Of a DNA stretch of 48,021 bases, positions 2,265 through 47,111 are shown in pieces. The stretch lies in sequence record PQ900155.1, one strand, 5' to 3'. Below the pieces are notes generated by a model that made no database searches, had not been told where the DNA came from, and saw only the letters and a program-made list of their open reading frames with translations. Source of the stretch: Escherichia phage vB_Eco_CWW26. Position numbers and translations under genes: made by a program. Positions within the stretch are counted from its first letter, which is position 1. Every line of letters begins with the position of its first letter.

Positions 2265-3674
2265 ATGGCTAAGGCTGCTAAAACAAACCTTCATCTCATG
2301 CCAGCTACAACAACCGACGGGCTGGTAAACGTCGTATCTGGTCTCGGAACGTGGAAAGCAAAACGCTCTCACAACGCGTTCCAGTATGCCGCGCTGTCCA
2401 ACTGGCAACAACTTGACGCAGCTTACCAGACTAACTGGCTGGCTCGTCAGATTGTGGAAATACCTGCCGAAGACATGTGTCGTGAGTGGCGCACTATCAA
2501 GTGCAAGGAAGCTGATGACATCCGTATCGAGGAGGACCGACTGATGATACCTGCCGTTGTACAGGAGGCTGTCACATGGGCGCGTCTGTACGGTGGTGGT
2601 GGTATTCTCATGCTGACCGGTCAGGACCTGTCAAAGCCGCTCGACGTGCGCCGTATTCGTAAAGGTGATTTGAAGCGTTGTATCGTGTTTGACCGTCATG
2701 ATATGTCACCTCTCACCATGAACACCTGGGACATTCTGGCACCTAATTACATGATGCCGGAGTATTACACCATTACTGGTGGTGGACAACAAATCCACTG
2801 GACCCATTTTGCGCGTTTCAATGGTAAGCGTTTGCCGCGTCGCCAGATGGTCCAGACTCAGGGATGGGGTGACAGTGAGTTACGCGTGTGCCTCGATGAC
2901 ATCATGGACATGGTTGCGTCGAAGGATGGCATCGCGGAACTGATGCAGGAAGCAAACGTTGATGTGGTCAAGCGTGAAGGGTTGTCCGATGAGTTAGCCA
3001 GTGACCAGGATGACGCGATTGTGTCGCGTTACACTCTGTTCAGTCAGATGAAGTCACTGGTGCAAATGGCCCTGCTGGACGGTGACGAGTCATACGAACG
3101 TAAGACGCTCGACCTGGGCGGCGTTGCACCGGTGCTTGAGACGTTCATGACGTGGATTAGTGGTGCAGCTGACATTCCTGTCACGCGCCTGTTCGGTACT
3201 TCAGCCAAAGGTTTAAACGCCACGGGTGAAGGGGACATGAACAACTATAACAACTCCATCCGTTCTAAACAGTTGACACAAGTTGACCCGGGGTTGCGCC
3301 AGCTTGATGAGGTGCTGGTACGTAGCGCACTGGGTTACTGGCCTGACGACTTCAACTATGTGTGGAATCCACTCGCACAGCCCAATGAGTTACAGATTGC
3401 ACAGGCCGCTAAAACACGCGCTGATAAGGACATGTTGTATCTCGCAGAAGGTGTTATCACCGTGTCACAGGTGCAGCGCAATCTGGAAGCCGCCGAAGAG
3501 TATCAGTTTGAAGACGGTCAGATTGATGAGCAGTCAGAGACTGAGAAAGAAATGTCCACTGTGCAACGCCCTGAGCCTGACGAGCAGACCACGGACGCAT
3601 TCTGGATACGTTACAATGGGTATGTGGCTGACGGACTGTCGCACGATGAGATAATGGCAAAACTGGCCCAGTAA
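2265..3674 (+). CDS. portal protein (putative)
   Basis: 469-aa ORF starting 3 bp after terL stop; size and position typical of portal. No motif verified. Confidence 0.55.
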   Translation: MAKAAKTNLHLMPATTTDGLVNVVSGLGTWKAKRSHNAFQYAALSNWQQLDAAYQTNWLARQIVEIPAEDMCREWRTIKCKEADDIRIEEDRLMIPAVVQEAVTWARLYGGGGILMLTGQDLSKPLDVRRIRKGDLKRCIVFDRHDMSPLTMNTWDILAPNYMMPEYYTITGGGQQIHWTHFARFNGKRLPRRQMVQTQGWGDSELRVCLDDIMDMVASKDGIAELMQEANVDVVKREGLSDELASDQDDAIVSRYTLFSQMKSLVQMALLDGDESYERKTLDLGGVAPVLETFMTWISGAADIPVTRLFGTSAKGLNATGEGDMNNYNNSIRSKQLTQVDPGLRQLDEVLVRSALGYWPDDFNYVWNPLAQPNELQIAQAAKTRADKDMLYLAEGVITVSQVQRNLEAAEEYQFEDGQIDEQSETEKEMSTVQRPEPDEQTTDAFWIRYNGYVADGLSHDEIMAKLAQ

Positions 3675-3688
3675 CGGGCCAGTTTGGT

Positions 3689-3811
3689 TTATTTCTGCTT
3701 CGTAAAGCCACCACAACCACACTTCGGACACATCGTGTAACTCACGCCTTTCTTTTCAACCCGGTCAAGATGGTGATGCTCATGCTTGCATGCTACGCAG
3801 ATGATAATCAT
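3689..3811 (-). CDS. small zinc-ribbon-like protein (40 aa)
   Basis: Hand-translated MIIICVACKHEHHHLDRVEKKGVSYTMCPKCGCGGFTKQK; start overlaps stop of upstream gene (TAATG coupling). Below the 60-aa ORF-track cutoff. Confidence 0.3.
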   Translation of the reverse strand: MIIICVACKHEHHHLDRVEKKGVSYTMCPKCGCGGFTKQK

Positions 3812-4419
3812 TAATCCTCCAGCTTCACGCCGGGAATTTTACCGGCTGCGATGGCGTCGTAGATATGTTTAGCAATGTGCTTGATTTGCTCATTATTGTT
3901 GCTAATTAACTGACTAGCTTTTCCTATCTCGGAAATAGTCTCATCACGCTTGCGCTCTGCTTCGGTGCGGAGTGGGCGGAATCCGCAAACATTACCAACA
4001 AAAAATGGCTGACTTCCGTCAGATGGTTTAAGGCATGCACCATCGCCATCATAAACAAGGACAGTTACTGGAAGCCAATCATGGTCGCCGCTTGCTAGCC
4101 ACTCACACTCGACACCAACCGGCGGAAGACCTTCTCCGTTCCATGCTGGCTTTTGAGATTCGGCTAGTGCTGCTTTGTATTGCCAATAGGTCACTATCGA
4201 CTCCTTGTGGTCGTAAGATAAAGGCATGACCCATTCACCACACCAGAAATACATAAGGCTATTCCCTGTGTGATGTTTCCATGATAATCCATCATAGTGG
4301 GGATCATTCGTGTCCCATACACACAGGGAACCGTCATTATCTTGAGTAATTGACAGCGCACCCTCCGGCCAACCGCCACGCTTTGGTAATTCCTGACACA
4401 ATAGTTCAAGTAATGTCAT
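3811..4419 (-). CDS. hypothetical protein (202 aa)
   Basis: ORF track; second gene of a leftward cassette driven by the promoter at 4646-4674; 4-bp overlap with upstream gene. Confidence 0.5.
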   Translation of the reverse strand: MTLLELLCQELPKRGGWPEGALSITQDNDGSLCVWDTNDPHYDGLSWKHHTGNSLMYFWCGEWVMPLSYDHKESIVTYWQYKAALAESQKPAWNGEGLPPVGVECEWLASGDHDWLPVTVLVYDGDGACLKPSDGSQPFFVGNVCGFRPLRTEAERKRDETISEIGKASQLISNNNEQIKHIAKHIYDAIAAGKIPGVKLED

Positions 4420-4610
4420 TTTGTCTCTCCTGTTGCTTTAAGATAGTGTCGTGCTTTGTCAGTGAGTTGAAAGTTGCCCATCCCGAAGCGAGTTGGTTCT
4501 ATGTAACCTTTGTCCAATAAATCTTCCACTGTCTGAGGTATCACCCGCCAGAAACGTGTATTTTTGAAACTTTTAAGCATGCTAATTTCACGCTTCGTTA
4601 AACTGTCCAT
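4416..4610 (-). CDS. hypothetical protein (64 aa)
   Basis: ORF track; GGGAGGAG SD 5 nt upstream of ATG at 4610; first gene after the leftward promoter. Confidence 0.5.
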   Translation of the reverse strand: MDSLTKREISMLKSFKNTRFWRVIPQTVEDLLDKGYIEPTRFGMGNFQLTDKARHYLKATGETK

Positions 4611-4645
4611 CTCTACTCCTCCCGCTGAATTGTGATAACATGTAC

Positions 4646-4674
4646 ACTCTACTCCATACTGACGAGGCCGTCAA
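4646..4674 (-). promoter_or_regulatory. sigma70-like promoter, palindromic -35 (leftward)
   Basis: Minus strand reads TTGACG-gcctcgtcagtatggag-TAGAGT (17-bp spacer); palindrome CTGACGAGGCCGTCAA at 4659-4674; about 40 bp upstream of ATG 4610. Confidence 0.55.
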
Positions 4675-4676
4675 GC

Positions 4677-5462
4677 ATGTCACGACAAACAGAGCTAAAT
4701 TATTATCGCCAGCTGAAACAGGTTGCACAGCTTGTTCGTGAGGATGTGGACGCCAACATCGTCCCGCTGGTGAAACAGCTTGCGCCGGAGTACACGGCTG
4801 ACGGCTGGAGTGACACTATCACCTCGGCGATTAACCAGTTGCTCACACGGTGGCTTGGTGCGTTTGCTCGTCGTCAGGCTGAGACTATTGCGTCACAGTT
4901 TGTACAGACTGCGGCAAAGGATAACGCCCGCTCATTCGCTATCAATCTGTACGGCGGCGATACACAGCTACAGGAATATCTCAGCGCCGCATCGTATCAG
5001 AACGCTAAACTCATTCAGTCCATTCCGGCTCAGTATCTGGAGCAGGTGCAGAACATCGTCATGACCAACATGCGTAACGGTATGCGCCCCAGTTACATCG
5101 AGGAAGCACTTGTTAAACAATTTGGTATCACGGAGCGTCGTGCCAAACTTATCGCCCGGGACCAGACCAGTAAAATACAGGGCGATATGAACCGCATTCG
5201 CCAGACGAACAGCGGTATTGAGTATTTCAAATGGGTGACGTCACAGGATGAGCGGGTACGTCATAGCCACGTGGAGGTCGCCAAACGCGATGTGGGATTC
5301 GGTGAAGGTGTATTCCGCTGGGATGATTTGCCGGTTGTCGATGGTGTACCAACATTTCCGGGTCAGCCAATAAATTGCCGTTGTGTGGCGAGGCCAGTCA
5401 CAGCGGCACAGGTGGAGCGGAATAAAAGGGCCGGTAAAACCGACCCAAGTGTTAAGCGATGA
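4677..5462 (+). CDS. head morphogenesis protein (Mu gpF / SPP1 gp7-like)
   Basis: C-terminal motif RVRHSH...DG...P...NCRC typical of this family; ATG at 4677 (ORF track begins at GTG 4632, which would overlap the leftward promoter). Confidence 0.65.
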   Translation: MSRQTELNYYRQLKQVAQLVREDVDANIVPLVKQLAPEYTADGWSDTITSAINQLLTRWLGAFARRQAETIASQFVQTAAKDNARSFAINLYGGDTQLQEYLSAASYQNAKLIQSIPAQYLEQVQNIVMTNMRNGMRPSYIEEALVKQFGITERRAKLIARDQTSKIQGDMNRIRQTNSGIEYFKWVTSQDERVRHSHVEVAKRDVGFGEGVFRWDDLPVVDGVPTFPGQPINCRCVARPVTAAQVERNKRAGKTDPSVKR

Positions 5463-5742
5463 TACCGTCGACCACTTTGTACCATTGCTCTTTAATATTA
5501 TCCAGTCGTGCTATATGTCTGGTAATTTGAGTTTCAAGATGAGCATGTGCACCCAGTAAACTACCAAATAACACCCATTTATCTTTGTGCATGTGAATGT
5601 GGACACCTGCGTTTTTACCAGTTCTGACGAAATCATATGAATTTTTATAGCTTCTATTCACATATCCTACAATGATTTCCGCTTGTGATATCTCATCGAT
5701 ATTTATTGGTAACGCAAATCTTATCTCTATCTCTTGCGTCAT
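5452..5742 (-). CDS. hypothetical protein (96 aa)
   Basis: ORF track; last gene of a leftward cassette; His-rich segment GVHIHMH...GAHAHLE. Confidence 0.4.
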   Translation of the reverse strand: MTQEIEIRFALPINIDEISQAEIIVGYVNRSYKNSYDFVRTGKNAGVHIHMHKDKWVLFGSLLGAHAHLETQITRHIARLDNIKEQWYKVVDGIIA

Positions 5743-5852
5743 TATTTACCCTTCCACGTTTCAATTAAACTTTCAATACCCAGGAACAGTAAGTAGCCAA
5801 ATACCAACGTTCCGAACCAGTGGTCAGCAATGAAGTTGAGTACGTCAATCAT
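5742..5852 (-). CDS. small membrane protein (36 aa, putative)
   Basis: MIDVLNFIADHWFGTLVFGYLLFLGIESLIETWKGK; one hydrophobic helix; ATGA overlap with upstream gene. Confidence 0.3.
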   Translation of the reverse strand: MIDVLNFIADHWFGTLVFGYLLFLGIESLIETWKGK

Positions 5853-6037
5853 TTCCCACGTCCTCTGAACACTCGATTCAACACTTCCCACAGTCCGGAA
5901 ATTACAGCAACCGGACCAAATGCGACAATTGTCCATGCCTGCCACTTATATTCCAGTTCCAGAGGCACCGTGGCGATTGTTACTATAATTACCCACCCTG
6001 CAAGCAGGATAATCAGTACACCTTTGGTAATATCCAT
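5849..6037 (-). CDS. small membrane protein (62 aa, two predicted TM helices)
   Basis: ORF track; two hydrophobic stretches (LIILLAGWVIIVTIATV and IVAFGPVAVISGLW). Confidence 0.45.
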   Translation of the reverse strand: MDITKGVLIILLAGWVIIVTIATVPLELEYKWQAWTIVAFGPVAVISGLWEVLNRVFRGRGK

Positions 6038-6234
6038 TAGCCCAACACCTTATTAACAAGTTGGTCCATCGCGGTCCATCGCTTAGATGCCGAACCATCC
6101 TCTTTAGTCGCGGTGAATGTCACAATATCCTCGAGGAAGTTCATTTTAAAGTTTGTCACAGTGATAACACCGTCTGCATCAATAATCCGGTCATTGTTGC
6201 GGAGCATTACCGCTTTAATTGGTTTATAGTTCAT
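6037..6234 (-). CDS. hypothetical protein (65 aa)
   Basis: ORF track; translationally coupled within the leftward cassette. Confidence 0.4.
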   Translation of the reverse strand: MNYKPIKAVMLRNNDRIIDADGVITVTNFKMNFLEDIVTFTATKEDGSASKRWTAMDQLVNKVLG

Positions 6235-6380
6235 TTTCCATACGCCTCACGTAATGCAGCATTAGCGAGCGCCCAATCATCATGCTTGCGCGCAAGCTGC
6301 TGTGCGGTCTGTAACAGTTCTTTATCAATGACCCGCGCCTCTGATACGGGGCGGTCGTAGCCAGGAAGTAATGTGTTCAT
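6231..6380 (-). CDS. hypothetical protein (49 aa)
   Basis: Hand-translated MNTLLPGYDRPVSEARVIDKELLQTAQQLARKHDDWALANAALREAYGK; GAGAGGG SD; stop overlaps next ATG; about 45 bp downstream of the promoter. Confidence 0.35.
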   Translation of the reverse strand: MNTLLPGYDRPVSEARVIDKELLQTAQQLARKHDDWALANAALREAYGK

Positions 6381-6411
6381 CTCTCAAACCCTCTCTGTTG
6401 TTGATGAATTA

Positions 6412-6441
6412 AGTATACGTCATCCCTGACGAACTCGTCAA
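6412..6441 (-). promoter_or_regulatory. sigma70-like promoter, palindromic -35 (leftward)
   Basis: Minus strand TTGACG-N18-TATACT; palindrome CTGACGAACTCGTCAA at 6426-6441. Confidence 0.5.
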
Positions 6442-6447
6442 CTTAAA

Positions 6448-6633
6448 TCACTCCTGCGGCGGCTCGGGTAATGGTTGCCAGTGTGTGGGAGTAAATAAAG
6501 CGCCATAAACTCGCCAGTTACCGCTTAATCCTTCGCTATAGAAACCAGTCTTCATTCCGCAATACTTCTTTGTCACCAGTACATCAACGCCTTCTTCTGG
6601 TAATTTATCACTACACTTAATCCAGTCTGCCAT
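6448..6633 (-). CDS. DUF551-like phage protein
   Basis: C-terminal THWQPLPEPP matches the DUF551 signature as I recall it; upstream KCSDKLPEEG. Confidence 0.5.
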   Translation of the reverse strand: MADWIKCSDKLPEEGVDVLVTKKYCGMKTGFYSEGLSGNWRVYGALFTPTHWQPLPEPPQE

Positions 6634-6814
6634 ACAATGTCCCCACTCGTTTCAAATCGCGCTGTGCGTGACAGCTGTAATTACCATCGTCCCATTTGAC
6701 CCAGTATTGCGGCGGGTCATTTGCGACAACATTTTTAACTGTGCCGGTAACGACACCATCGGGGAATAACTTCACAAGTGTCCCGGTTGGGTAGCGTGGG
6801 ATGGTGCTGGTCAT
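6617..6814 (-). CDS. hypothetical protein (65 aa)
   Basis: ORF track; overlaps neighbours within the leftward cassette. Confidence 0.4.
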   Translation of the reverse strand: MTSTIPRYPTGTLVKLFPDGVVTGTVKNVVANDPPQYWVKWDDGNYSCHAQRDLKRVGTLYGRLD

Positions 6815-7104
6815 TCCAGTTCCTCATCTTTTTGATTAATGTACACTGGTTCACCAAACCATACGGGTGTGACATATCCCTTGATTTCATCAGCAATGCG
6901 ACTGGCGCACGATAGCGCCCCTGATTGTGAATGTATGCGACCGTTGGCATATTCAGTTTGATAGGCGTGAGGCTGCTCACCCTCATACAACGGTTTCAGT
7001 TTATACCCAAACATGACAGCGTTGTTATGCGCCACACTGCCCGCGCGGACCAGATATGTCGTACCGCGATTGGTTGTCACTTCATATGCGTATGGTGTGT
7101 TCAT
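6811..7104 (-). CDS. hypothetical protein (97 aa)
   Basis: ORF track; 4-bp overlap with upstream gene. Confidence 0.4.
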   Translation of the reverse strand: MNTPYAYEVTTNRGTTYLVRAGSVAHNNAVMFGYKLKPLYEGEQPHAYQTEYANGRIHSQSGALSCASRIADEIKGYVTPVWFGEPVYINQKDEELE

Positions 7105-7658
7105 TTGTCACCCTCCGACAGTTCATTAATTAGACGCTCAAGATACCAGCGGGCCTTTTTCACATCTTCCAGGCCGTTCTTCTCTTCATAGCGCCACAGG
7201 TATTTAACAACGTTTGCCACACATACTGCCTCGATACCGGTCTTACCCACCGTGGCAGCGGTGATAGCGTCGATACACTCGATACCGCCTTGTGTGTAGT
7301 GTGACGGGTGGTTGACCATGTCGACATCAATGAGTGGAGTTTGAATGCAACCGAATTGTACAGTACCATCTGGGTGATGAATTGAACGCGGACGATTATC
7401 ATTGGTTGCTACAGGTTCGCGTTGGGCGATGATTTCTATGTTATAGGTAGCGTTAACGTCTCCTTCACCAAGCGTATTACAATCATCAAGACTTGACTCA
7501 CTGGGCCACCAAATTCTGTCCCCCACACTTTGCAAACCGTTACGGTTTTCCTCATATCCGATGTCGCCAGTTCCCAACTCTCTTATCACCTGCTTACACC
7601 AATCCGGCGCACATTCGAAGTCTTTCTCGTCACCTTTAATGTAGTTCCACGTGGTCAT
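7101..7658 (-). CDS. DUF3310-domain protein
   Basis: HPSHYTQGGIECIDAI...VVKYLWRYEEKNGLEDVKKARWYLERL resembles DUF3310; ATG at 7658 with GAGGAGA SD. The ORF-track N-terminus (to 7757) would overlap the promoter. Confidence 0.5.
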   Translation of the reverse strand: MTTWNYIKGDEKDFECAPDWCKQVIRELGTGDIGYEENRNGLQSVGDRIWWPSESSLDDCNTLGEGDVNATYNIEIIAQREPVATNDNRPRSIHHPDGTVQFGCIQTPLIDVDMVNHPSHYTQGGIECIDAITAATVGKTGIEAVCVANVVKYLWRYEEKNGLEDVKKARWYLERLINELSEGDK

Positions 7659-7704
7659 GTTGTATCTCCTCTGAAATATATGTATTATGTGTTTAACGAT
7701 TATC

Positions 7705-7733
7705 ACTATGGCATACTCTGACGGACTCGTCAA
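7705..7733 (-). promoter_or_regulatory. sigma70-like promoter, palindromic -35 (leftward)
   Basis: Minus strand TTGACG-agtccgtcagagtatgc-CATAGT; palindrome CTGACGGACTCGTCAA at 7718-7733. Confidence 0.5.
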
Positions 7734-7734
7734 C

Positions 7735-8829
7735 ATGCAAATCACCGTAACGCACAATGACCGTAAAAGTTTTGCACTGAATTCCCAACGTGTTTACACG
7801 GATGAGGGATTTCTGCGTGTGCCGGGTAAAGCCGCTCGTACTGGTATTCAGGAATATCTCGCTTCGGAACTGGGACTGAAAGGTCGCGCACCGAACGACA
7901 TTATCCGTGTGTACCGTCCCGCCGAAGAAGTGTTTAATGATGAATCACTTCAGAGCTATCTCGGTGCAGATGTCACGAATAACCATCCTCCTACGCTTGT
8001 CAATGCTTCCACATACCGTAATACTTCCGTTGGTGTTGTAACGAGTGTCGGTCGTCAGGACGGCGATTTCGTCATTGTGGATATGGTTATCAAGGATAAA
8101 GACGCGATTAAGGCTGTCGAAACCGGTAAGTGTGAGTTGTCAGCGGGTTACACGGCGGTGTATGATGATACACCGGGGACAACGCCGGAAGGTGAACCAT
8201 ACGACTTCCGACAGACTCAGATTAAAATTAACCACGTTGCAATTGTTGACCGTGCTCGTGCGGGTGCAATGGCGCGTATCTTCGATAATATGGAGAAAAA
8301 ACCCATGTATCAAATCACCACTGACACCGGGCTAAAAGTTGATGTGGCGGATGCTGCGGTAGTAGACGCGTTCAAACGCTTGGAACAGCGTGTCAGTGAC
8401 GCCGAAGCCGCCAAAGAAACCGTACAGGCTCAACTCGACGCAGCAATGGAACAGGTTGCCGACCTGACCACTAAATGCAGCGACGAAGCCCTGAAAGCAC
8501 GCGTGGAAGCAATCGCACGTGTTACCTCCTCAGCGCGTAAAGTTGCTGGCGATGAATTCACCTGTGACAGCATGGACCCGGTTACAATCAAACGTGCCGC
8601 TCTCGCTGTTAAACGTCCGTCTGTTGACTGGGCTGAAAAATCTGCCGCCTATGTTGAAGCCGCTTTCGACATGGCTGTGGAAGAACCGGTGAAACCTGTG
8701 GTAGACTCACAGCTTGAGCAACTGGCTAAAGATGGTGCTAAAGACATCAAACAGCCGGTAGCCGACGCAAAACCTGTACTGTCCCGCGCACAAGAAGCAC
8801 TGCTGCGTCAGACTGGTAAACTTAAATAA
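7735..8829 (+). CDS. head scaffolding / prohead core protein (putative)
   Basis: Directly upstream of capsid genes; C-terminal Ala/Glu-rich helical region. Start ambiguous (7708 or 7735), no clear SD. Confidence 0.4.
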   Translation: MQITVTHNDRKSFALNSQRVYTDEGFLRVPGKAARTGIQEYLASELGLKGRAPNDIIRVYRPAEEVFNDESLQSYLGADVTNNHPPTLVNASTYRNTSVGVVTSVGRQDGDFVIVDMVIKDKDAIKAVETGKCELSAGYTAVYDDTPGTTPEGEPYDFRQTQIKINHVAIVDRARAGAMARIFDNMEKKPMYQITTDTGLKVDVADAAVVDAFKRLEQRVSDAEAAKETVQAQLDAAMEQVADLTTKCSDEALKARVEAIARVTSSARKVAGDEFTCDSMDPVTIKRAALAVKRPSVDWAEKSAAYVEAAFDMAVEEPVKPVVDSQLEQLAKDGAKDIKQPVADAKPVLSRAQEALLRQTGKLK

Positions 8830-10462: not shown

Positions 10463-12043
10463 ATGTTTATAGAAAAAGCAAAAGAAATACATAAAGGAAA
10501 ATATGACTATTCCAAAGTGGAATATGTAAACAACAAAACACCTGTGACGATAGTTTGCCCGGTGCATGGCGATTTCGTTCAACTACCACAGGGACACCTG
10601 AAATGCGAAATAGCGTGCCCAAAATGCAGAATCGACGACGTTTATGACCGAATGATACAACAGGCGCGAGCGATTCATGGTGACAAGTACTCATACGTCC
10701 GGGAATCGTTCATTTCCGTAGTCAAGAAAATGTCCATAGTGTGTCCGGTACACGGGGTGTATTACATGACACTGAATAACCACGTTCACGGGGGTGCGGA
10801 GTGTAAACCCTGCGCACTGGCAAAGCGTGGTGAGTTACACCGAAAGACACTTGATAGTTTTGTAGAAGACGCGAAAAAAGTTCATGGTGACAGGTACGAT
10901 TATTCCAAAGTTGTTTACGAGGGTAACAAAAAGAAAATAACCATCACTTGTGCAAAACATGGTGACTTTAAACAGGAACCATCTTCACATCTTTCAGGAA
11001 GAGGTTGTCCAAAATGCGGCCTTGAGTCAAGAGTAAGCAAAAGCATGAGTACTCTTGAAAGATTCATTCGCAAAAGCAGAGTCATACATGGTGATAAATA
11101 CGATTATTCCAAAGCGGTGTATAAAGGTAGTGACCAAAAATTAACCATAATTTGTCCGGTACATGGTGAATTTTCCCAATACGCAAACAACCACTCTACT
11201 CTTGGCCATCAATGCCCGACGTGTTCTAAAGCTGGTGTGTCCCGGGGTGAATTTGAAGTCTTCAACTTCGTCCGTTCCATCTGTCCCGATGCGGTACAAT
11301 CTGACCGTACAGTCATTGGACCGCTGGAACTTGATGTTGTAGTGCCGTCGCGCAATCTGGCAATTGAATTTAACGGCCTGTACTGGCACGATGAACGCAC
11401 GAAAAACAAGAAGTATCACATCACCAAGCGTCACCGCGTGGAAGCCGCAGGATACCGTCTGATAAGTATCCGTGAGGATGTCTGGAATGAGCGCCGCGAA
11501 CAGGTGGAAAGTATCATTCGCAACGCACTCGGCGTGACATCCGACAAAGTGTTTGCCCGCAAATGTAATATCGTGGAAGTTTCGACGTCTGAAGCGAAGG
11601 TATTTATGGAGAAACACCACGTGCAGGGTTTCCGGGGTGCGACCGTACATTATGGTCTGCAACACGATGATACATTAGTCGCCGTAATCAGTCTGACAAA
11701 CTGGCAGAAAAAGAATGAGTGGGAACTGGTACGATATGCAACCGCGTGTAATGTTCCGGGTGGACTGTCCCGCCTGTGGAAACATGCTACCACGGTTAAC
11801 AACATTGTCCGTGCCTATTCATACGTTGACCGGGATTTGTTCAGTGGTTCCGGTTATATTAATGCCGGTTTCACACTTTCAACCACGACAGTGGGGTTCA
11901 GGATTGTAAATGGTTGCACAACCGAATCGCGTGAGAAGTGGAACCGCGCACCAGATGAAATGACACAGACGCAATGGTACGAATCAGAAGGTGTATCACG
12001 CATCTACGATTCTGGACAGGACAAGCTGTTATGGGTAGAATGA
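10463..12043 (+). CDS. free-standing homing-endonuclease-like protein (4 zinc-ribbon repeats + Vsr/PD-(D/E)xK-like C-terminal domain)
   Basis: Four repeats of HGDKYDYSKV...CP.HG.F...H..G..CPKC; C-terminal LDVVVPSRNLAIEFNGLYWHDE; AT-rich codon usage; AAGAGGAG SD; inserted between capsid terminator and next structural gene. Confidence 0.55.
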   Translation: MFIEKAKEIHKGKYDYSKVEYVNNKTPVTIVCPVHGDFVQLPQGHLKCEIACPKCRIDDVYDRMIQQARAIHGDKYSYVRESFISVVKKMSIVCPVHGVYYMTLNNHVHGGAECKPCALAKRGELHRKTLDSFVEDAKKVHGDRYDYSKVVYEGNKKKITITCAKHGDFKQEPSSHLSGRGCPKCGLESRVSKSMSTLERFIRKSRVIHGDKYDYSKAVYKGSDQKLTIICPVHGEFSQYANNHSTLGHQCPTCSKAGVSRGEFEVFNFVRSICPDAVQSDRTVIGPLELDVVVPSRNLAIEFNGLYWHDERTKNKKYHITKRHRVEAAGYRLISIREDVWNERREQVESIIRNALGVTSDKVFARKCNIVEVSTSEAKVFMEKHHVQGFRGATVHYGLQHDDTLVAVISLTNWQKKNEWELVRYATACNVPGGLSRLWKHATTVNNIVRAYSYVDRDLFSGSGYINAGFTLSTTTVGFRIVNGCTTESREKWNRAPDEMTQTQWYESEGVSRIYDSGQDKLLWVE

Positions 12044-13769: not shown

Positions 13770-13770
<1 letters not shown>

Positions 13771-13790
13771 GCCCCTCACGGGGCTTTGTA
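13770..13790 (+). terminator. hairpin terminator (weak T-tract)
   Basis: AGCCCC-TCAC-GGGGCT then TTGTAAG, between convergent genes. Confidence 0.4.
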
Positions 13791-13865
13791 AGACATGAAT
13801 GCTTTCATGAATTCCGCTGCACCTTTGTCCCATTCGTTACAATGGTTAACCATCCGTATCGTGAG

Positions 13866-14315
13866 TTAACTTCCGGTACTCCCAAAACCACCCTGACGGT
13901 TAGTTTTCTGTTGGGGAGGTTCATTGATTTCATTAAACGTCACTTGTTCGACTGGAATTAGCATCCCCTGTGCGATCCGGTCACCGTGATTAACCCAGAA
14001 CACACCTTCATGATGGTTAACATCCTGCGTCAACTTAACCATTAACTCACCAGTGTAGTCACTGTCAATGACGCCGGTACAATTTGACAGACGGACATCG
14101 CTGTTAAATCCGTGACCACTGCGTGAGTAAATCATCAAAGCATGTCCAACTGGTATATCAAATTTAAGCCCTGTAGGAATGATTACAGGCTCACCGTTGT
14201 GAATTAGCACTGGTTTATCGAGTGCAGCATAAATATCGAAGCACGCGCTTCCTGACGTTGCATACGTTGGGATACGTGCACCAGGACGTGACAGGTAAAC
14301 ATTCATTTCGCTCAT
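13866..14315 (-). CDS. dut: dUTPase (dUTP pyrophosphatase)
   Basis: Motifs PTYATSGSA, YSRSG, GVIDSDYTGEL, GDRIAQ, GGFGSTG. ATG at 14315 with GGAGAG SD gives a typical ~149 aa; the ORF track extends to 14414. Confidence 0.85.
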   Translation of the reverse strand: MSEMNVYLSRPGARIPTYATSGSACFDIYAALDKPVLIHNGEPVIIPTGLKFDIPVGHALMIYSRSGHGFNSDVRLSNCTGVIDSDYTGELMVKLTQDVNHHEGVFWVNHGDRIAQGMLIPVEQVTFNEINEPPQQKTNRQGGFGSTGS

Positions 14316-14394
14316 TTCTTCAACTCTCCAGCCATATTGTGCGCGGTTAAGCGCGATAAATTTATCTTTCGTTGTAAATAAAACTGTTCCGGAC

Positions 14395-14793
14395 TTATGC
14401 ATTACTACCCACATATTTAATCACCATGTATCCTGGTCTGGCGGAAAGTGAGACCTTGTGTCCATATATCCACGCGGTTTTATATACGTATGTCAACTGT
14501 GCGGTGCGCAATTTAATGTCAGAATATGTAGCTTTCGTTCTCCATTCCCATGTAAATTTATCGCCTGGTTTTGCTCTTTCAAGGGCGTCAAGAAGGATGA
14601 TGCGCTCATACGACCTTACTCCACGTGATACGCGTCTCCGGGTTTTGGGCTTCCCTCGTGCCAGACTTCGACCATCTGGTTTTCCACTTTTTGTGATTCG
14701 TATCAGTCTCTGTGATGGCTGTGCGACATCTCGAGGGACACTCTCTTCTGGAACAGAATTTATTTTTTTTAAAATATAAGATGCAAATGACAC
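14395..14793 (-). CDS. hypothetical basic protein
   Basis: GTG at 14793 with AGGAG SD; the ORF-track start at 14856 lies inside the promoter and repeat, so a shorter product is preferred. Confidence 0.4.
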   Translation of the reverse strand: MSFASYILKKINSVPEESVPRDVAQPSQRLIRITKSGKPDGRSLARGKPKTRRRVSRGVRSYERIILLDALERAKPGDKFTWEWRTKATYSDIKLRTAQLTYVYKTAWIYGHKVSLSARPGYMVIKYVGSNA

Positions 14794-14824: not shown

Positions 14825-14853
14825 AGTATATCAATGATTGACGTACTCGTCAA
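14825..14853 (-). promoter_or_regulatory. sigma70-like promoter, palindromic -35 (leftward)
   Basis: Minus strand TTGACG-agtacgtcaatcattga-TATACT (17-bp spacer); palindrome TTGACGTACTCGTCAA 14838-14853 straddles the repeat boundary. Confidence 0.6.
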
Positions 14854-15143
14854 CACCTCATTTTACCCCGAAATACCCGAGCTATCGGGGTGGTGAATTT
14901 ACATTCACAATCATAGGTTTACGCGCATAACCGAAAACCCCGTACATTCTTCCCTTCTTCCTTCTTATAAACCTTATAAACTATACATTATGTATTATAC
15001 TACATTTATACTATATATTATATACTTTCTATTACTACTAATTACTATTTTATAAGGGTATAAGGGTAATAAGTAGTATAGTACTGAAAGGTAAAGAGTT
15101 TTTGATACCCCGATGAAGTACCCCGAACGACTTTCAACGGGGT
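14844..15143. repeat. 300-bp direct repeat, copy B
   Basis: Matches 1-300 by eye; flanks diverge immediately outside. Confidence 0.9.
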
Positions 15144-15198
15144 GTGTGGATACTGACGCAATGCTGTGTGATAATGTCTTGACAAACGAGGGCACACT

Positions 15199-18174: not shown

Positions 18175-18194
18175 AAGGGGCCTGATGGCCCCTT
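18175..18194. terminator. bidirectional rho-independent terminator
   Basis: AAGGGGCC-TGAT-GGCCCCTT between convergent genes; T-rich on both sides. Confidence 0.65.
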
Positions 18195-18196
18195 AG

Positions 18197-18532
18197 TTAT
18201 TTCTGGTTGAGCATGGCGGTGCGGTAGGATTCATCCTCACCAAATATAGCCGCCTCCAGTACATCAATGGCTTGCGATGGTGAGTGTGAATATTTATCGA
18301 AGGTCGGACCTTTGATGAACTGTGCGATTTTGAACAGTCGTTTTTCTTGCGCGTGATACAAATCACTTAGTTTCTTATATCTCTCATCGGACTCACTATC
18401 CATCGTCGCCAGGAGCATTTTATACACCTGAAGATTGTATTCACCGTTCATCGATAGCTGACCTTGCTCATCTTTTATTTTGTACAGTCGGTCGATTTGT
18501 GTAATCAGGTTTTCTTTTGTCACTCTTCTCAT
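18197..18532 (-). CDS. hypothetical protein (111 aa)
   Basis: ORF track; second gene of a leftward two-gene cassette in the tail module. Confidence 0.45.
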   Translation of the reverse strand: MRRVTKENLITQIDRLYKIKDEQGQLSMNGEYNLQVYKMLLATMDSESDERYKKLSDLYHAQEKRLFKIAQFIKGPTFDKYSHSPSQAIDVLEAAIFGEDESYRTAMLNQK

Positions 18533-18777
18533 TTTCTTTTACTCCGAATGTGAAAGTCTGCTTTATCCATCATATCTTTACGCCAGCAAACGCCGGTACC
18601 CATATACGCCGGGTCGTCACTTTCCGCATAACCAAATTCATTTTCATGATACGTGCAAATCGTGTCGGTCTGTCCGTCATAAATCTGGAACTGATCACCT
18701 TGTGCAGCGTGGGCACCGCTGCAGTAAATTGTCGCAGCCATGATGACTGCTAACTGAATTTTAAATTTGTGAATCAT
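18529..18777 (-). CDS. small secreted protein with signal peptide
   Basis: MIHKFKIQLAVIMAATIYCSGAHA then mature part with 3 Cys; ATG at 18777 with AGGAGA SD. The ORF-track TTG at 18837 is the promoter -35. Confidence 0.5.
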   Translation of the reverse strand: MIHKFKIQLAVIMAATIYCSGAHAAQGDQFQIYDGQTDTICTYHENEFGYAESDDPAYMGTGVCWRKDMMDKADFHIRSKRK

Positions 18778-18808
18778 TTCTCTACTCTCCTGTTGTTCTG
18801 CTGAGGTA

Positions 18809-18837
18809 ACTATAACCCACCTTGACGAGTCCGTCAA
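18809..18837 (-). promoter_or_regulatory. sigma70-like promoter, palindromic -35 (leftward)
   Basis: Minus strand TTGACG-gactcgtcaaggtgggt-TATAGT; palindrome TTGACGAGTCCGTCAA 18822-18837. Confidence 0.6.
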
Positions 18838-18897
18838 TAATTGATTGATGATTTCGTCAGGGGTACACTGTAACGACTAACAACCGGAGAAATAAGA

Positions 18898-19272
18898 ATG
18901 TCACTCATTAAAACTTTTACCGCTGGCGACATCACCGTAAACGCCGCGATGCCTTCCGCAATCGAGCAGGACGAACTATTATCCCTGGTGAGCGCACAGT
19001 TTATCGCACATGCCGCCAACGTTTACAAAAACGGCGGCGAACTCGGTGTCAAAGATGTAACCCTGTTGCTCACTGCTGTACCGCATCACATCAAGCAACG
19101 TATTACCGATGTACTTCTGAGTAAAGCAATGACGGCTGGTACTAACACTAAAATCACAGTGAATGATTTCCCCGGTAAAATGATGACGCTAAACACTCTG
19201 CTGGCAGAATTGTTTCTGTGGGTTTATGCTGATTTTTTCGATTACGTGCAAAACGCAAACAAAGACGAGTAA
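18898..19272 (+). CDS. tail assembly chaperone (putative, zero-frame product)
   Basis: 124-aa ORF between tube and tape measure genes; slippery heptamer near its 3' end. Confidence 0.45.
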   Translation: MSLIKTFTAGDITVNAAMPSAIEQDELLSLVSAQFIAHAANVYKNGGELGVKDVTLLLTAVPHHIKQRITDVLLSKAMTAGTNTKITVNDFPGKMMTLNTLLAELFLWVYADFFDYVQNANKDE

Positions 19273-19481
19273 GGGACACCGGGCGACCCAGCCCGGTTAA
19301 CTGGTACTTTATGCGGGTTTGCACGGGTATCGAGGGAGTGTGCCCACCTCTTTGTACATGGGCGCAGTTAAAAGATGGTACAATATCGCTTGCTGAAGTC
19401 GAACAATTTCACTTTGCGATGGATGAATTGCAGGGTAAGTATATCGAGGCGATGAACAATGCAAGAAATTCCCCTAAATAA
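18898..19481 (+). CDS. tail chaperone frameshift fusion product (putative, ~194 aa)
   Basis: Predicted product of a -1 shift at 19233-19239; the extension begins RLRAKRKQRRVR. Confidence 0.3.
19233..19239 (+). other. candidate -1 programmed frameshift site T_TTT_TTC
   Basis: Canonical X_XXY_YYZ heptamer 11 codons before the chaperone stop; the -1 frame is open for 80 further codons to TAA at 19479-19481. Confidence 0.4.
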
Positions 19482-19755
19482 TGGCGCGGCTAACGCTCAT
19501 CAGACTTTCACGGTTAAGCTGGGTGACAACGTTCTCGACTTTGCGCTGGATTACATCAGCTATACCGACAAGCCCGCGTGGACAATGACTGTCTCACAGG
19601 ATGGTATCAACTACATCACCGGTGCAATGCTTGTCCCAAATGCTGAGGTCAGCAAAGCATACCGCGCCGGACTGGGTCGTTTTTTCTTTGTGGGCGATGA
19701 GGTAACCATCGACAACCTCGGCGTTGATAACCATCTTCTGTGGGTGCCCGAATAA
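19459..19755 (+). CDS. hypothetical tail protein (98 aa)
   Basis: ORF track; stop overlaps the tape measure ATG (TAATG). Confidence 0.4.
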   Translation: MQEIPLNNGAANAHQTFTVKLGDNVLDFALDYISYTDKPAWTMTVSQDGINYITGAMLVPNAEVSKAYRAGLGRFFFVGDEVTIDNLGVDNHLLWVPE

Positions 19756-21092
19756 TGGCTAATGTGATTACGCAGTTTCTGGTCGGTCTCGGCATCTCTT
19801 ACGATGGTAAAGGTGCTGAACAGGCTGAAAAAGATATCGACAACCTCGGCAAATCGGCGGAGCAAGCCGGTAGTCGGATGGACGATGTCGGCAAGTCCCT
19901 CGACCAGGGTGTTAAAACCGGTGTAGAAAATTCAAAATCACGCATCATGAGTCTGGTCGCTACGTTCAAAGGAGCAGGACTTGCGATGTCCGGTGTTGCT
20001 GCGGGTGTCGGCGCAGCGTGGGCGTTTGAGTCGAAGAAAGCGCAACAGGCTTACGACCTGAACAACCAGCTTGCAACCAGTCAGTTCGGACCAACTGAGG
20101 TTTACGGACTTGGTGCACTGGCTGAACAGCGTGGCGGCGACCGGCAAGCAACAACAAACAGCCTTTTAAATATTGAGCGTGGAATTAACCGCATTCAGAC
20201 CGGTGACGCCGGGATGATTCAACAACTGGCGGTCGCAGGAATCCGTGTCGATAACCCTACGGGGCGTACACGCGAAGATATTTACAGCGACATCGCCGGA
20301 CAGTTCCAGCACCTCGATACGACGCGTCAGAGCAACGTAGCGGATATTTTAGGTCTCGACCCGGCTACCGTCAGAGTATGGCAGGAGTTCGGCACTACAA
20401 CGCTGGAAGTGTCAAAAGCCCGTGCCGCTGAACTGGGTTACACCGAGAAACATAATGCAGCACTGGATGCAATCAATCAGACCATAATTGACACGCAACA
20501 GAAAATGGAAGGACTGGGTAACACTATTGCAGATGTTCTCGCACCCAGTATTAAAACCTTGTCCGATAGTTTCCTGTCTGCTGCCACGGGTTTTACAAAC
20601 TGGCTGAAAGCACACCCTGATTTACCGACGGATATCGTAAGTGGTAACTGGTATGATAAGTATATTGTTGGTAGTGCCAATAATACAGCGGAGTGGATCA
20701 AGGAGAAAACAGGATTCGATACCCGTGATATTGGGAGGTCTTTTAGCGCCGAGAATAATCCACCAAAACCAGATTACGACTACACCAGGAAGCCAGAAGA
20801 TAAACCACAACAATCATTTGTGTGGCAGCAACCACAGCAGGAGAATATCATCTCCAACGACGGTTCATACGGTGCCGAAGCAAGCCCGGTAACGAACAAT
20901 TACGCGCAGCAAAGCCAGCAGATGAGTCAGATTATGGAGTCCATAAACCGTCCGATTCAGCTTAACGGTAATTTTACCACACAGGGCGACGTGATACTGG
21001 ACGGTAATGCGATTGGTCGTTATACCGTGAATCATCTTGAGACGCAGGTGTATCCACAGGCGATTGACCAGACCCGGCAAAGGAGTTACTGA
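19755..21092 (+). CDS. tape measure protein (putative, short)
   Basis: 445 aa; Ala/Gly-rich hydrophobic segment GLAMSGVAAGVGAAW; position after chaperone genes. Confidence 0.45.
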   Translation: MANVITQFLVGLGISYDGKGAEQAEKDIDNLGKSAEQAGSRMDDVGKSLDQGVKTGVENSKSRIMSLVATFKGAGLAMSGVAAGVGAAWAFESKKAQQAYDLNNQLATSQFGPTEVYGLGALAEQRGGDRQATTNSLLNIERGINRIQTGDAGMIQQLAVAGIRVDNPTGRTREDIYSDIAGQFQHLDTTRQSNVADILGLDPATVRVWQEFGTTTLEVSKARAAELGYTEKHNAALDAINQTIIDTQQKMEGLGNTIADVLAPSIKTLSDSFLSAATGFTNWLKAHPDLPTDIVSGNWYDKYIVGSANNTAEWIKEKTGFDTRDIGRSFSAENNPPKPDYDYTRKPEDKPQQSFVWQQPQQENIISNDGSYGAEASPVTNNYAQQSQQMSQIMESINRPIQLNGNFTTQGDVILDGNAIGRYTVNHLETQVYPQAIDQTRQRSY

Positions 21093-21094
21093 TA

Positions 21095-22519
21095 ATGGAT
21101 TTGCGCCAGTATGAGATACTCATTGATACAAAGAATTTCATCACTCAGTCGTACCCGATGCTCCGGTGCTCGTTCGATGTAACAACGTATACCGGCGACA
21201 GTCTGAGTACCTGTGAGTTTCGCTTGTGGAACCTCGCACCGACAACGAAGATTGAACCTAATCAGACCGTTGTTTTTCGCGCCGGGTATCAGTCGCGCAT
21301 GGGTCAGATTTTTACTGGATTTGTTACCAACGTTTTCACTATTCGTGACGGTACTGACATTATTACACGTGTGACGTGTCGCAGCGGTAGCAACGTGCTC
21401 GACGGTGGGACAACGAGTGCAAGTTTCGGTAAGGGGGTGACATTGTTTGACGTCCTGACCAGCCTCGCACAGGACTGGTCAAAACCGCTATATCTTGTCA
21501 ATAGCGTGGACAAATTTACCTCTATTGTCATGGTTAGCGGCTACAACGTCAGCTCCGACATTAGTAAAGAACTCGATATTCTGGCCAAAGCGTATGGCTT
21601 CGAATGGCATCTGTACGCTGGACAGGTGTTTGTCGGATTCCCGTCTGATGACCGTAAAGCCACACCTGTTAAAATCAGTTCCGCCACCGGGATGATTGAT
21701 GCTCCCACGCTTCACGGCGGTATTGATGGTGTATTCTGTGACGTTAAAATGCGTCTTGACCCCCGTATGACACCCGCATCGGTGCTCAATATCGAGTCAA
21801 AATGGCCTAAATTCGATTTCGGAGCAGTGGAGTTCCAGACAACCGTCGACGCTAAACTGGAAGGTGACTGGAACGTTCAGACCATTCAACACACTGGCGA
21901 TACACATGGTCCCGACTGGTACACATTTGTCAAAGCTGTGCGCGCCGGGTCAATGGATACCACCACGGCAAATGCTGACGTTGGTAATCGTCTTATTTAC
22001 GGTCGCGTGGGTGTGCAGGGTGAGGATGCCAGTCAGCAACAGGATTTCCGTACTGAGGTGCGTAAACTTGGGCAAAGTCTGGGTATCAGTCCTAACTGGA
22101 TTATGGCTGTAATCTCTGCCGAGTCTAACTTCAATCCACAGTCAAAGAACAGCAAATCCGGCGCGGTAGGACTGATTCAGTTTACTAATGCCGGTTGGAC
22201 GAGTGCGTTTCAGAGTAAGTACGGTCGCAATAAAAATATCATCCTGTCAATGACTGCAGCCGAACAGGTGAGGGGTCCGATTACTGATTATCTCAATCAA
22301 TATAAAGGGCGTTACAAGACAATGGGGGATGTATACATGGCGGTATTCAGTCCGGCATTTATCGGTAAACCTTCAACAACCGTGATGTACACGTCACCGT
22401 CCAAAGCGTACAATCAGAATGCAGGGCTTGACACGGAGCATAAAGGTTACATTACTGTCGGTGACGTGTGGCGGCGTGTTGAGGAACGATTCAGACAAGG
22501 TAAGGCGTACATGTTATGA
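21095..22519 (+). CDS. tail protein with lytic transglycosylase (SLT) domain
   Basis: C-terminal AVISAESNFNPQSKNSKSGAVGLIQFTNAGW matches the SLT signature (E-S...GLMQ). Confidence 0.55.
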   Translation: MDLRQYEILIDTKNFITQSYPMLRCSFDVTTYTGDSLSTCEFRLWNLAPTTKIEPNQTVVFRAGYQSRMGQIFTGFVTNVFTIRDGTDIITRVTCRSGSNVLDGGTTSASFGKGVTLFDVLTSLAQDWSKPLYLVNSVDKFTSIVMVSGYNVSSDISKELDILAKAYGFEWHLYAGQVFVGFPSDDRKATPVKISSATGMIDAPTLHGGIDGVFCDVKMRLDPRMTPASVLNIESKWPKFDFGAVEFQTTVDAKLEGDWNVQTIQHTGDTHGPDWYTFVKAVRAGSMDTTTANADVGNRLIYGRVGVQGEDASQQQDFRTEVRKLGQSLGISPNWIMAVISAESNFNPQSKNSKSGAVGLIQFTNAGWTSAFQSKYGRNKNIILSMTAAEQVRGPITDYLNQYKGRYKTMGDVYMAVFSPAFIGKPSTTVMYTSPSKAYNQNAGLDTEHKGYITVGDVWRRVEERFRQGKAYML

Positions 22520-23166
22520 GTTTAATTAACCTTCTGGTAAAGCGCGGTCCACAGCTTGGGTCGCTTCAGTTCGATGCCGTCCTGTCTGATGACCTTGATG
22601 CCAGCGTGGATATCGTGCAGTACCCCATTGAGACAGGTACGCCAATTGCAGACCACATTATCTATCAGCCTATTCGTTACACGATGACAGGTGCAGTATC
22701 GAACAACCCGTTGAAAGTTAGTATCACCGATTTCACCGGGGCATTGACAAATCTTGTCGATGACAATCCGTTCATTGCAGCGGGTGCCGGTCTGTTCGCG
22801 GGGTGGTTGAGCGGCTCAAATGAAACTCGCTCCAGTACGACACTGAATACTTTGCTCGATTTCATGTACTCCGGTCAGGTATTCACAGTGGATACGGGCG
22901 AAATTACGCTGAACAATATGGTCATTCAGCGTATTGGGCGCTCTAAAGACCCGGAGAATGAGAACGGATTGATATTTGTTGCTGAACTACAGCAGATTGT
23001 CACGCTTGACCGCGTGGCGAACGGTTCACAACCGGCACAATATCAGCTGAACAGTAACGACGTTTCCAGCACGTCCATATCAGGACTGATTGAGCGTGGT
23101 TATATCAATGTGAAGACAGCTGCAACGAATGTTGCCGACCAGGTTACGACACTTTTGGATTTGTAA
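22516..23166 (+). CDS. hypothetical tail / baseplate hub protein
   Basis: ORF track; last gene before the non-coding island. Confidence 0.4.
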   Translation: MSLINLLVKRGPQLGSLQFDAVLSDDLDASVDIVQYPIETGTPIADHIIYQPIRYTMTGAVSNNPLKVSITDFTGALTNLVDDNPFIAAGAGLFAGWLSGSNETRSSTTLNTLLDFMYSGQVFTVDTGEITLNNMVIQRIGRSKDPENENGLIFVAELQQIVTLDRVANGSQPAQYQLNSNDVSSTSISGLIERGYINVKTAATNVADQVTTLLDL

Positions 23167-23193
23167 AAAAAAAAAAGCCCCGTACTCCGGGGC
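23165..23193 (-). terminator. rho-independent terminator for leftward transcription
   Basis: Hairpin GCCCCG-TACTC-CGGGGC (23177-23193) preceded on + strand by A12, so on the minus strand it is followed by U12. Confidence 0.6.
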
Positions 23194-23677: not shown

Positions 23678-23684
23678 TGAATAA

Positions 23685-23713
23685 ATAATTACATTGTTTG
23701 ACGTGATTGTCAA
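23685..23713 (-). promoter_or_regulatory. sigma70-like promoter, variant palindromic -35 (leftward)
   Basis: Minus strand TTGACA-atcacgtcaaacaatgt-AATTAT; + strand palindrome TTGACGTGATTGTCAA 23698-23713; weak -10. Confidence 0.35.
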
Positions 23714-23748
23714 TAGTATACTTGACATTATTTTCACAGGAGGGCGAC

Positions 23749-38726: not shown

Positions 38727-38760
38727 GACGCCATCGTCAATAGTTGAGAGGAAGTGAGAG

Positions 38761-47096: not shown

Positions 47097-47111
47097 TATC
47101 AGGTAAATAAA

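Follow-up and report, generated by a model that had tools for sequence, protein, structure and literature searches.

The 48,021-nucleotide stretch of DNA analysed here (the window; sequence record PQ900155.1, from Escherichia phage vB_Eco_CWW26) carries four blocks of leftward genes among the rightward genes for virion proteins, at 3689-4610, 5452-7658, 13866-14793 and 18197-18777, as seen in the lists of open reading frames (ORFs) and in the annotation. We refer to the blocks as cassettes A to D and to the junctions that they occupy as slots: S1 between portal and MuF, S2 between MuF and protease, S4 between head-tail gp27 and neck, and S5 between tail tube and chaperone. Positions 3400-8000 are 100% identical to Escherichia phage ZCEC13 (ON086804.1 / NC_071140.1, genus Jedunavirus), whose RefSeq annotation contains the same strand alternation; the interleaved arrangement is already visible in public annotations, though our literature search found neither the interleaving nor the palindrome at the cassette promoters described for Jedunavirus. 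For comparison we used ten relatives, of which nine are Jedunavirus/Peatvirus genomes (KpV52, IME346, PEAT2, KB2, 1611E-K2-1, Geezett, cmc20193, JYSS3 and RCIP0108) and the tenth is Pantoea phage AAM22. The presence of each gene in them was scored by tblastn, and families built from the longest ORFs in the slots, some of which are opposite-strand shadow ORFs, were used qualitatively only. Moreover, 34 metagenomic loci from IMG/VR, covering the two MuF-flanking slots S1 and S2, were surveyed. The comparison suggests that the slots are an old feature of these phages within which genes come and go.

Leftward cassettes and their promoters

The cassettes, their genes, promoters and end hairpins are as follows.

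3660-3685, both strands: GC-rich hairpin overlapping the portal stop codon, 3 nucleotides (nt) from the end of cassette A
3689-4610, minus: cassette A in slot S1 (portal/MuF), 3 genes
3689-3811, minus: Cys-rich protein of 40 residues, in 0/10 relatives
3811-4419, minus: protein of 202 residues (phrog_7798), about 40% identical in 9/10 relatives
4416-4610, minus: protein of 64 residues, in 1/10 relatives
4646-4674, minus: promoter of cassette A, TTGACGgcctCGTCAgtatggagTAGAGT
4677-5462, plus: MuF-like head morphogenesis gene, the lone rightward gene between leftward cassettes A and B
5428-5446, minus: terminator-like hairpin of cassette B, leftward only, within the 3' end of the MuF coding sequence
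5452-7658, minus: cassette B in slot S2 (MuF/DUF2213 protease/scaffold), 9 genes
5452-5742, minus: gene in 0/10 relatives
5742-5852, minus: small membrane protein, by hydropathy
5849-6037, minus: small membrane protein, by hydropathy
6037-6234, 6231-6380 and 6617-6814, minus: genes each in 9-10/10 relatives
6412-6441, minus: internal promoter of cassette B, TTGACGagttCGTCAgggatgacgTATACT, then the 5' untranslated region CATCAACAACAGAGAGG
6448-6633, minus: DUF551 protein (Pfam E=8e-15)
7101-7658, minus: DUF3310 protein, promoter-proximal (Pfam E=3e-19), in 9-10/10 relatives
7705-7733, minus: distal promoter of cassette B, TTGACGagtcCGTCAgagtatgcCATAGT
13770-13787: weak hairpin at the end of cassette C
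13866-14793, minus: cassette C in slot S4 (head-tail gp27/neck1)
13866-14414, minus: dUTPase (Pfam E=3e-20), in 2/10 relatives
14395-14793, minus: basic protein of 132 residues
14825-14853, minus: promoter of cassette C, TTGACGagtaCGTCAAtcattgaTATACT, with a perfect palindrome of 16 base pairs (bp)
18175-18194, both strands: terminator-like hairpin between the tail tube gene and cassette D
18197-18777, minus: cassette D in slot S5 (tail tube/chaperone), 2 genes
18197-18532, minus: protein of 111 residues
18529-18777, minus: signal-peptide protein of 82 residues, by hydropathy, in 9-10/10 relatives
18809-18837, minus: promoter of cassette D, TTGACGgactCGTCAAggtgggtTATAGT

An earlier note on this DNA had ascribed to the blocks a palindromic promoter each, together with small membrane proteins, DUF551-like and DUF3310-like proteins, dUTPase or a secreted protein. 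This content was borne out, and the DUF3310 families are labelled 'nucleotide kinase' in PHROGs; Pfam gave no DUF551 match for the protein at 18197-18532 in cassette D. The promoters are also present as described, and each block ends in a distal hairpin, so that the four appear to be self-contained leftward units running from a near-consensus sigma-70 promoter to a GC-rich hairpin. The hairpin at 3660-3685 looks like a bidirectional terminator because it has a T-tract on both strands, and the bidirectional hairpins would insulate cassettes A and D. The collisions of rightward and leftward transcription that the note expected are plausible at cassette B, where MuF has no rightward terminator.

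The idea that the leftward ORFs are an annotation artefact, that is non-coding shadows, can practically be dismissed for the cassettes. There are two annotated ORFs that are probably not genes: 14995-15195, which lies inside a 300-bp repeat described below and shows 49/43/39 substitutions by codon position (20 synonymous versus 86 non-synonymous), and 13776-13853, which has no coding signature. On the other hand, the conserved small ORFs show a third-position substitution bias (for example 19/9/107 by codon position for 7101-7658), which marks them as real genes. In addition, cassette genes carry Pfam domains above cut-offs and belong to PHROG families, a strong Shine-Dalgarno site follows each promoter, and the 202-residue protein of cassette A has 2990 homologues. 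Two annotated starts should probably be moved. The RefSeq start of gp30 at 14853 falls inside the promoter of cassette C, and the GTG at 14793, which comes after AGAGAGGAG, is likely the better start. Similarly, the annotated start of the protease/scaffold gene at 7687 falls within the leftward promoter, and the true start is probably the ATG at 7735, judging from the position of the palindrome and the conservation in relatives.

The homologues of the 202-residue S1 protein have no Pfam domain, and many of them are on contigs of 46-49 kb, which may point to a large unsampled diversity of Jedunavirus-like phages. Among isolates this protein is only about 40% identical, whereas their flanking virion proteins are more than 95% identical, so that its gene looks fast-evolving and arms-race-like. 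Its AlphaFold2 model was moderate (predicted local distance difference test 69, predicted template modelling score 0.43), and a Foldseek search against the Protein Data Bank (PDB) returned generic SH3/Tudor-like small barrels, none at E<=0.001.

The blocks had also been called early-type, and base composition and codon usage agree with this label. The GC content is 45.2% in cassette genes, 50.3% in structural genes and 45.4% in the small genes of the replication region, which we take as early genes. Third-position GC of the cassette genes differed from that of structural genes (Mann-Whitney p=0.001) and not from that of early genes (p=0.26), and the Jensen-Shannon divergence of codon usage was 0.017 to early genes and 0.034 to structural genes. 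Moreover, the content includes dUTPase and the DUF3310 protein, and the promoter class is shared with replication operons (at 35851, 38683, 40774, 41993 and 44746). The cassettes thus seem early-type in character, from which an early timing may be inferred.

A pattern search placed TTGACG-N4-CGTCA(A) in front of each cassette on the minus strand, with TAnnnT 7-8 nt further on. The palindrome's left arm is the -35 box, and 17-18 nt separate it from the -10 box. These minus-strand -35 boxes begin at 4674 (cassette A), 7733 (B), 14853 (C) and 18837 (D); cassette B has a further one inside it, at 6441, and a first gene with its strong Shine-Dalgarno site lies downstream of each cassette promoter. 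The modules are fitted closely to the neighbouring virion genes: the palindrome of cassette A ends 2 nt before the MuF ATG at 4677, in a promoter block that is nearly invariant across relatives, and the protease/scaffold ATG at 7735 begins 1 nt after the distal palindrome of cassette B. A palindrome is also found at the place equivalent to the internal S2 promoter in 9/9 Jedunavirus/Peatvirus genomes. With one mismatch allowed, the window has 25 strand-matches to the palindrome, or 13 sites, versus 1.49 expected, a number that 0/100 shuffles reached, and it has 10 full promoter instances of this class. Across 11 genomes we collected 82 palindromes, in which the arm bases TTGACG/CGTCA recur in 75-82 of the 82 and the 4 nt between the arms vary; because of this pattern the palindrome resembles a protein site rather than a structural stem. 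As a bidirectional promoter, with the palindrome as -35 box on both strands, the module was rejected, since no plus-strand -10 lies at the right distance at 4659 or 18822.

Further copies lie in the right-hand part of the window.

35823-35851, minus: palindromic promoter in the replication region
38655-38683, minus: palindromic promoter in the replication region
38725-38740: copy at an operator position, covering -10/+1 of a different promoter, TTGACA(38697)-17-CATAAT
40774-40803, plus: palindromic promoter in the replication region
41993, plus: palindromic promoter of the TetR-like gene gp78, with the variant palindrome TTGACCactcCGTCAA
42051-42329, plus: gp78, a TetR_N helix-turn-helix protein of 92 residues (PF00440, 31.3 bits versus a cut-off of 24)
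44746-44774, plus: palindromic promoter in the replication region

The replication operons thus appear to share the promoter class of the slots, and the virion operons appear to use other promoter-like sites, of which those below are candidates.

1-300 and 14844-15143, plus: perfect 300-bp direct repeat
303-332 and 15147-15175, plus: extended -10 promoter-like sites after the repeat
18841-18869, plus: candidate promoter of the chaperone/tape-measure operon, TTGATT-17-TACACT, with the imperfect palindrome TTGATGatttCGTCA in the spacer
23694-23722, plus: candidate promoter of the baseplate operon, of the TTGnTT-17-TAyACT class, with an imperfect palindrome in the spacer

The copies of the 300-bp repeat precede the rightward operons that start with terS (366) and neck1 (15199). 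The element contains TACCCCG repeats (15 in the window versus 4.55 expected), AT-rich TATAAGGG repeats and a hairpin. It is kept in relatives, and copies within a genome are more alike than copies between genomes, a pattern suggestive of concerted evolution. We regard it as a candidate late-promoter or activator-binding region. No phage sigma factor or RNA polymerase gene is annotated in the genome.

Conservation of the slots among relatives

Slots S1, S2, S4 and S5 are present in 9/9 Jedunavirus/Peatvirus genomes, with a palindromic promoter at the right end of each. Their lengths in the relatives vary widely (S1 633-1284, S2 1198-2422, S4 1258-2248 and S5 695-2511 bp), and the promoter modules hardly change, even in front of different first genes. 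The borders of the variable DNA coincide with the ends of the promoter modules. Five of the 16 cassette genes (6037-6234, 6231-6380, 6617-6814, the DUF3310 gene and 18529-18777) occur in at least nine of the ten relatives; the cassette genes vary across relatives, so that the mosaic content proposed by the earlier note holds. HNH endonucleases are found sporadically in slots S0, S2, S3, S4 and S5 of the relatives, and an S1-type promoter module sits at S5 in KpV52 and Geezett, which suggests recombination between promoter modules. Across the clade, then, gene content seems to change between promoter and terminator borders that stay conserved.

The metagenomic loci extend this picture. At MuF identities of at least 82%, S1 measured 251-1621 bp and S2 1142-2801 bp, and in 20/23 close loci the palindrome stood 4 nt before the MuF ATG. 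One contig with 69% identical MuF lacked S1; at 52-58% identity S1 held a rightward ORF and S2 was still leftward with palindromes; at 31% identity there were no slots. Among more distant phages, Pantoea AAM22 has no S1 but keeps S2, with the DUF3310 gene first, and S4, with dUTPase. Vibrio phage 1.256.O, whose MuF is 44% identical, shows the same interleaving at even more junctions, and Rhizobium RHEph05 and Shewanella SppYZU01 are colinear. Because slots and promoters are shared by close relatives, and the layout by distant phages too, the interleaving is best seen as ancient in the clade, with gene content that changes inside the slots.

This bears directly on the proposal that the cassettes are moron-like. 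Morons in the sense of Juhala and Hendrix are independent units with their own promoter and terminator and a GC content unlike that of their neighbours (PMC3594210). They too lie between virion genes, the first described one between tail chaperone and tape measure, which adjoins the position of S5 here. As classical morons, the cassettes would have entered the late operons recently and independently of one another, by horizontal transfer, each bringing a promoter and a terminator. Several features fit: a promoter and a hairpin of their own at all four blocks, a deviant base composition (45.2% versus 50.3% GC), the genes 3689-3811 and 5452-5742 in 0/10 and the dUTPase in 2/10 relatives, and an S1 empty in AAM22 and in one IMG/VR contig. 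However, a moron is by definition missing from close relatives, and its expression takes place in a repressed prophage, whereas the slots, with nearly invariant promoter modules, are conserved in 9/9 Jedunavirus/Peatvirus relatives and in most IMG/VR loci, within a virulent clade. The genus is called lytic in the literature and no integrase or repressor gene is annotated in the genome; in a virulent phage there is no prophage state for moron expression. Moreover, the cassettes are multi-gene operons whose promoters copy the phage's own genome-wide class and were not imported, only their contents vary, and five of their genes are present in at least nine of ten relatives. Individual genes behave as additions between genes that are adjacent in relatives, but the slots do not. 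At the level of whole cassettes the moron reading is therefore largely refuted, and we consider it very improbable. The earlier note had taken conserved interleaving with conserved content in relatives as a sign against its mosaic, and the relatives show this in part: slots and promoters are shared, and the content is partly core and partly variable. What stands of the moron-like label is the autonomous promoter and terminator, the deviant GC and the gene turnover; recent insertion is not supported, and the comparison indicates an ancestral layout with changing contents.

Timing and the candidate regulator

Our interpretation, to which we assign a probability of roughly 0.6 as a full model, is that the slots are conserved accessory-gene slots of Jedunavirus-like myoviruses at fixed junctions between virion operons. 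Host RNA polymerase would transcribe them early or mid infection along with the replication genes, and they would supply enzymes of nucleotide metabolism (dUTPase and the DUF3310 protein) and small host-interaction proteins. The palindrome would be the operator of a phage-encoded dimeric repressor, with gp78 as the likeliest candidate; as gp78 builds up, the leftward units would be shut off, leaving late transcription free to proceed rightward. In addition, the conserved promoter modules may double as recombination linkers that shuffle cassette content, aided by the sporadic HNH homing endonucleases.

The leftward units might instead be real but constitutive or late, with the strand alternation neutral and set by where insertions are tolerated. 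Whatever the timing, the two bidirectional hairpins would shield the units in S1 and S5, and the rightward ORF in S1 at 52-58% MuF identity means that the orientation is not obligatory. This is nevertheless unlikely, as the promoter class is shared with replication operons, the composition matches early genes, nucleotide-metabolism functions are needed during replication, and the slots are consistently leftward in more than 30 genomes. An interdigitated layout is familiar from T4-like phages, in which early or middle units are transcribed in the direction opposite to late virion clusters, and the switch is brought about by modification of RNA polymerase and by late promoters that depend on the phage sigma factor gp55. 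The phage studied here differs in that it has no annotated sigma or RNA polymerase gene and in that its putative early class carries an operator-like palindrome.

Whether gp78 binds the palindrome is close to an even question, with the balance slightly against it. The protein matches solved TetR structures in the PDB and is conserved at 83-100% in all Jedunaviruses. Its putative operator would be TTGACGnnnnCGTCAA or TTGACGagtaCGTCAA. The best parallel is the TetR-family regulator RutR of E. coli, whose box TTGACCAnnTGGTCAA spans 16 bp (PMC2475637). The phage palindrome has the same length and the same outer arms TTGAC/GTCAA, and the two agree at 10/14 consensus positions, among them 4 and 13, which are critical, although all phage sites have G6/C11 and the listed RutR sites Y6/G11. 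Like the RutR pair, the phage encodes a TetR_N protein and has a TTGACCA half-site upstream of gp78. In AAM22 the TetR homologue is 52% identical, the same palindrome stands at 10-13 equivalent places, TGACG-N4-CGTCA is by far the commonest palindrome, and the tetR gene carries the TTGACCA-type variant TTGACCATACCGTCAA. Vibrio 1.256.O has no TetR homologue; it has 11 copies of TGTGA-N6-TCACA in its genome, and its leftward cassettes have this box 21 nt before TATAnT (for example at its positions 2928, 5383 and 20124). The box appears to be a host-type CRP site placed as in class II promoters (-41.5), so that in this phage another regulator, possibly one of the host, seems to control the same arrangement of islands. 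TetR homologue and palindrome thus go together in ZCEC13 and AAM22, and Vibrio 1.256.O fits this link, but Shewanella SppYZU01 speaks against it. FNR and CRP were rejected as binders of the Jedunavirus palindrome, as spacing and arm sequences differ from their consensus sites.

A doubtful but not negligible alternative is that the palindrome is not the gp78 operator but a PeSL-like cassette for attenuation and recombination, or a site for another phage protein or for a host factor such as the RutR of Enterobacterales. PeSLs of the T4-type phages RB49 and phi1 are repeated sigma-70-like early promoters with a stem-loop overlapping -35/-10; they precede variable genes without a known function, a few of them inside virion modules, and were proposed to insulate late genes and to mediate modular shuffling through recombination (Arbiol et al., 2010; PMC2839356). 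The cassette promoters likewise are repeated sigma-70-like promoters with an overlapping sequence capable of forming a stem-loop. Their modules may have been exchanged between slots, and the PeSL regulatory cassette is arguably the closest known concept. The stems of PeSLs, however, vary in sequence: they are G/C tracts that terminate transcription, and a genome has about 50 of them in its hyperplastic regions. Here, a single 16-bp palindrome, fixed apart from its 4-nt centre, is present in 10-13 copies and looks operator-like. The stem of 6 bp with a 4-nt loop and no U-tract would be a poor terminator, and the terminators are separate hairpins at the far cassette ends; a role of the stem as terminator or attenuator is thus unlikely. 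The strict conservation of the arms with a varying centre and the copy over -10/+1 of a different promoter also favour an operator. For a binder other than gp78 speak the shared RutR positions, the apparent CRP box of the Vibrio relative (TGTGA-N6-TCACA-N21-TATAnT) and the Shewanella phage, which has a TetR homologue without the palindrome. The constant G6/C11 of the phage sites, set against Y6/G11, speaks against host RutR, which we keep as a minor rival.

Several points weigh against the model of early slots closed by gp78. Our literature search found no transcriptomics for any Jedunavirus, and both timing and promoter activity are read from sequence. A generic promoter scan of the whole window gave 31 sites versus 28.2 in shuffles, so that enrichment is limited to the palindromic subclass. 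The palindrome spanning -35 to -20 could serve another protein, or be a stem-loop or linker only. gp78 is without the C-terminal ligand-binding and dimerisation domain of about 130 residues and has about 40 residues after the helix-turn-helix. In Shewanella SppYZU01 the TetR homologue is 46% identical and the TGACG palindrome is not enriched, so the link between TetR and palindrome is not general. On the rightward side, no conserved promoter candidate was found for MuF except a possible TACACT -10 that overlaps the leftward -10, and the candidate for the head operon is weak.

7660-7688, plus: candidate promoter of the head operon, TTGTAT-17-TATTAT

Because the MuF and head promoters are lacking or weak, late transcripts may cross cassettes A and B antisense, and a shut-off of the leftward promoters would then be functionally relevant.

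A more far-reaching and tentative proposal, to which we give less credence than to the binding itself, is that one 16-bp operator and a minimal TetR-like protein of 92 residues form a genome-wide timing switch over at least 10 host-type promoters, in which the architecture is conserved and the regulator replaceable. If so, the switch would cover four or five leftward islands whose shut-off lets late transcription traverse the head-gene region, and the homologous layout of the Vibrio relatives would have been rewired to the CRP-type TGTGA-N6-TCACA at -41.5. Judging from the comparison with Pantoea and Vibrio relatives, the island architecture long predates the genus and differs in its regulatory wiring. 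Jedunaviruses are widely isolated as therapeutic Klebsiella phages, and we found no published account of their transcription. The shared palindromic promoter and the candidate mini-TetR provide a testable model of an early-to-late switch. Moreover, fixed slots with invariant borders indicate where accessory and host-interaction genes are exchanged, and they may offer cargo sites for engineering.

Other elements nearby

A fifth leftward unit and an additional gene lie outside the four cassettes.

10463-12043, plus: HNH/homing-endonuclease-like gene of 526 residues (phrog_559), between the major capsid gene and gp24
23165-23713, minus: fifth leftward unit, with promoter-like TTGACA(23713)-17-AATTAT in a degenerate palindrome
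23165-23193, minus: strong leftward-only terminator of the fifth unit, GCCCCG..CGGGGC then T12

No convincing ORF was found in the fifth unit (23165-23713). Its RNA folds better than shuffles (z=-3.15), and 23276-23322 matches a small-subunit rRNA helix in Rfam with 33.4 bits (E=1e-7), below the gathering score; at gathering thresholds neither Rfam nor a tRNA scan gave a match in the whole window. Two modules of about 100 nt, 23236-23353 and 23454-23555, are 91-94% identical to unannotated DNA of lambdoid HK633 and about 115 E. coli prophages, in which the counterparts of both are flanked by the genes for the Q antiterminator and the holin and have the same orientation relative to transcription. 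The fifth unit may be a non-coding RNA. Alternatively, it may be what is left of a mobile element, as its second module can be translated into an HTH-like peptide that runs up to a stop codon. The phrog_559 gene contains an internal 87-nt repeat (10883-10969 and 11087-11173). It occurs in some relatives and is absent from IME346 and KB2 (104-bp gap); in PEAT2 and JYSS3 a leftward gene for a Cas4-like nuclease takes its place.

Compared with the public ZCEC13 record, the window has 249 substitutions and no insertions or deletions, and the substitutions are confined to 18541-22548 and 46000-47462. These two patches are about 96% identical to ZCEC13, with mostly synonymous, third-position changes, and the second gene of cassette D and its 5' untranslated region fall within one of them. 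A search of phage collection records gave no better match to the patches, which look like natural recombination from an unsampled relative. Finally, the last 77 bases of the window (47945-48021) are an exact copy of the first 77 (1-77). The duplication resembles an assembler k-mer overlap (k=77) that was left uncollapsed where the sequence was circularised, in which case the true genome would be 47,944 bp.

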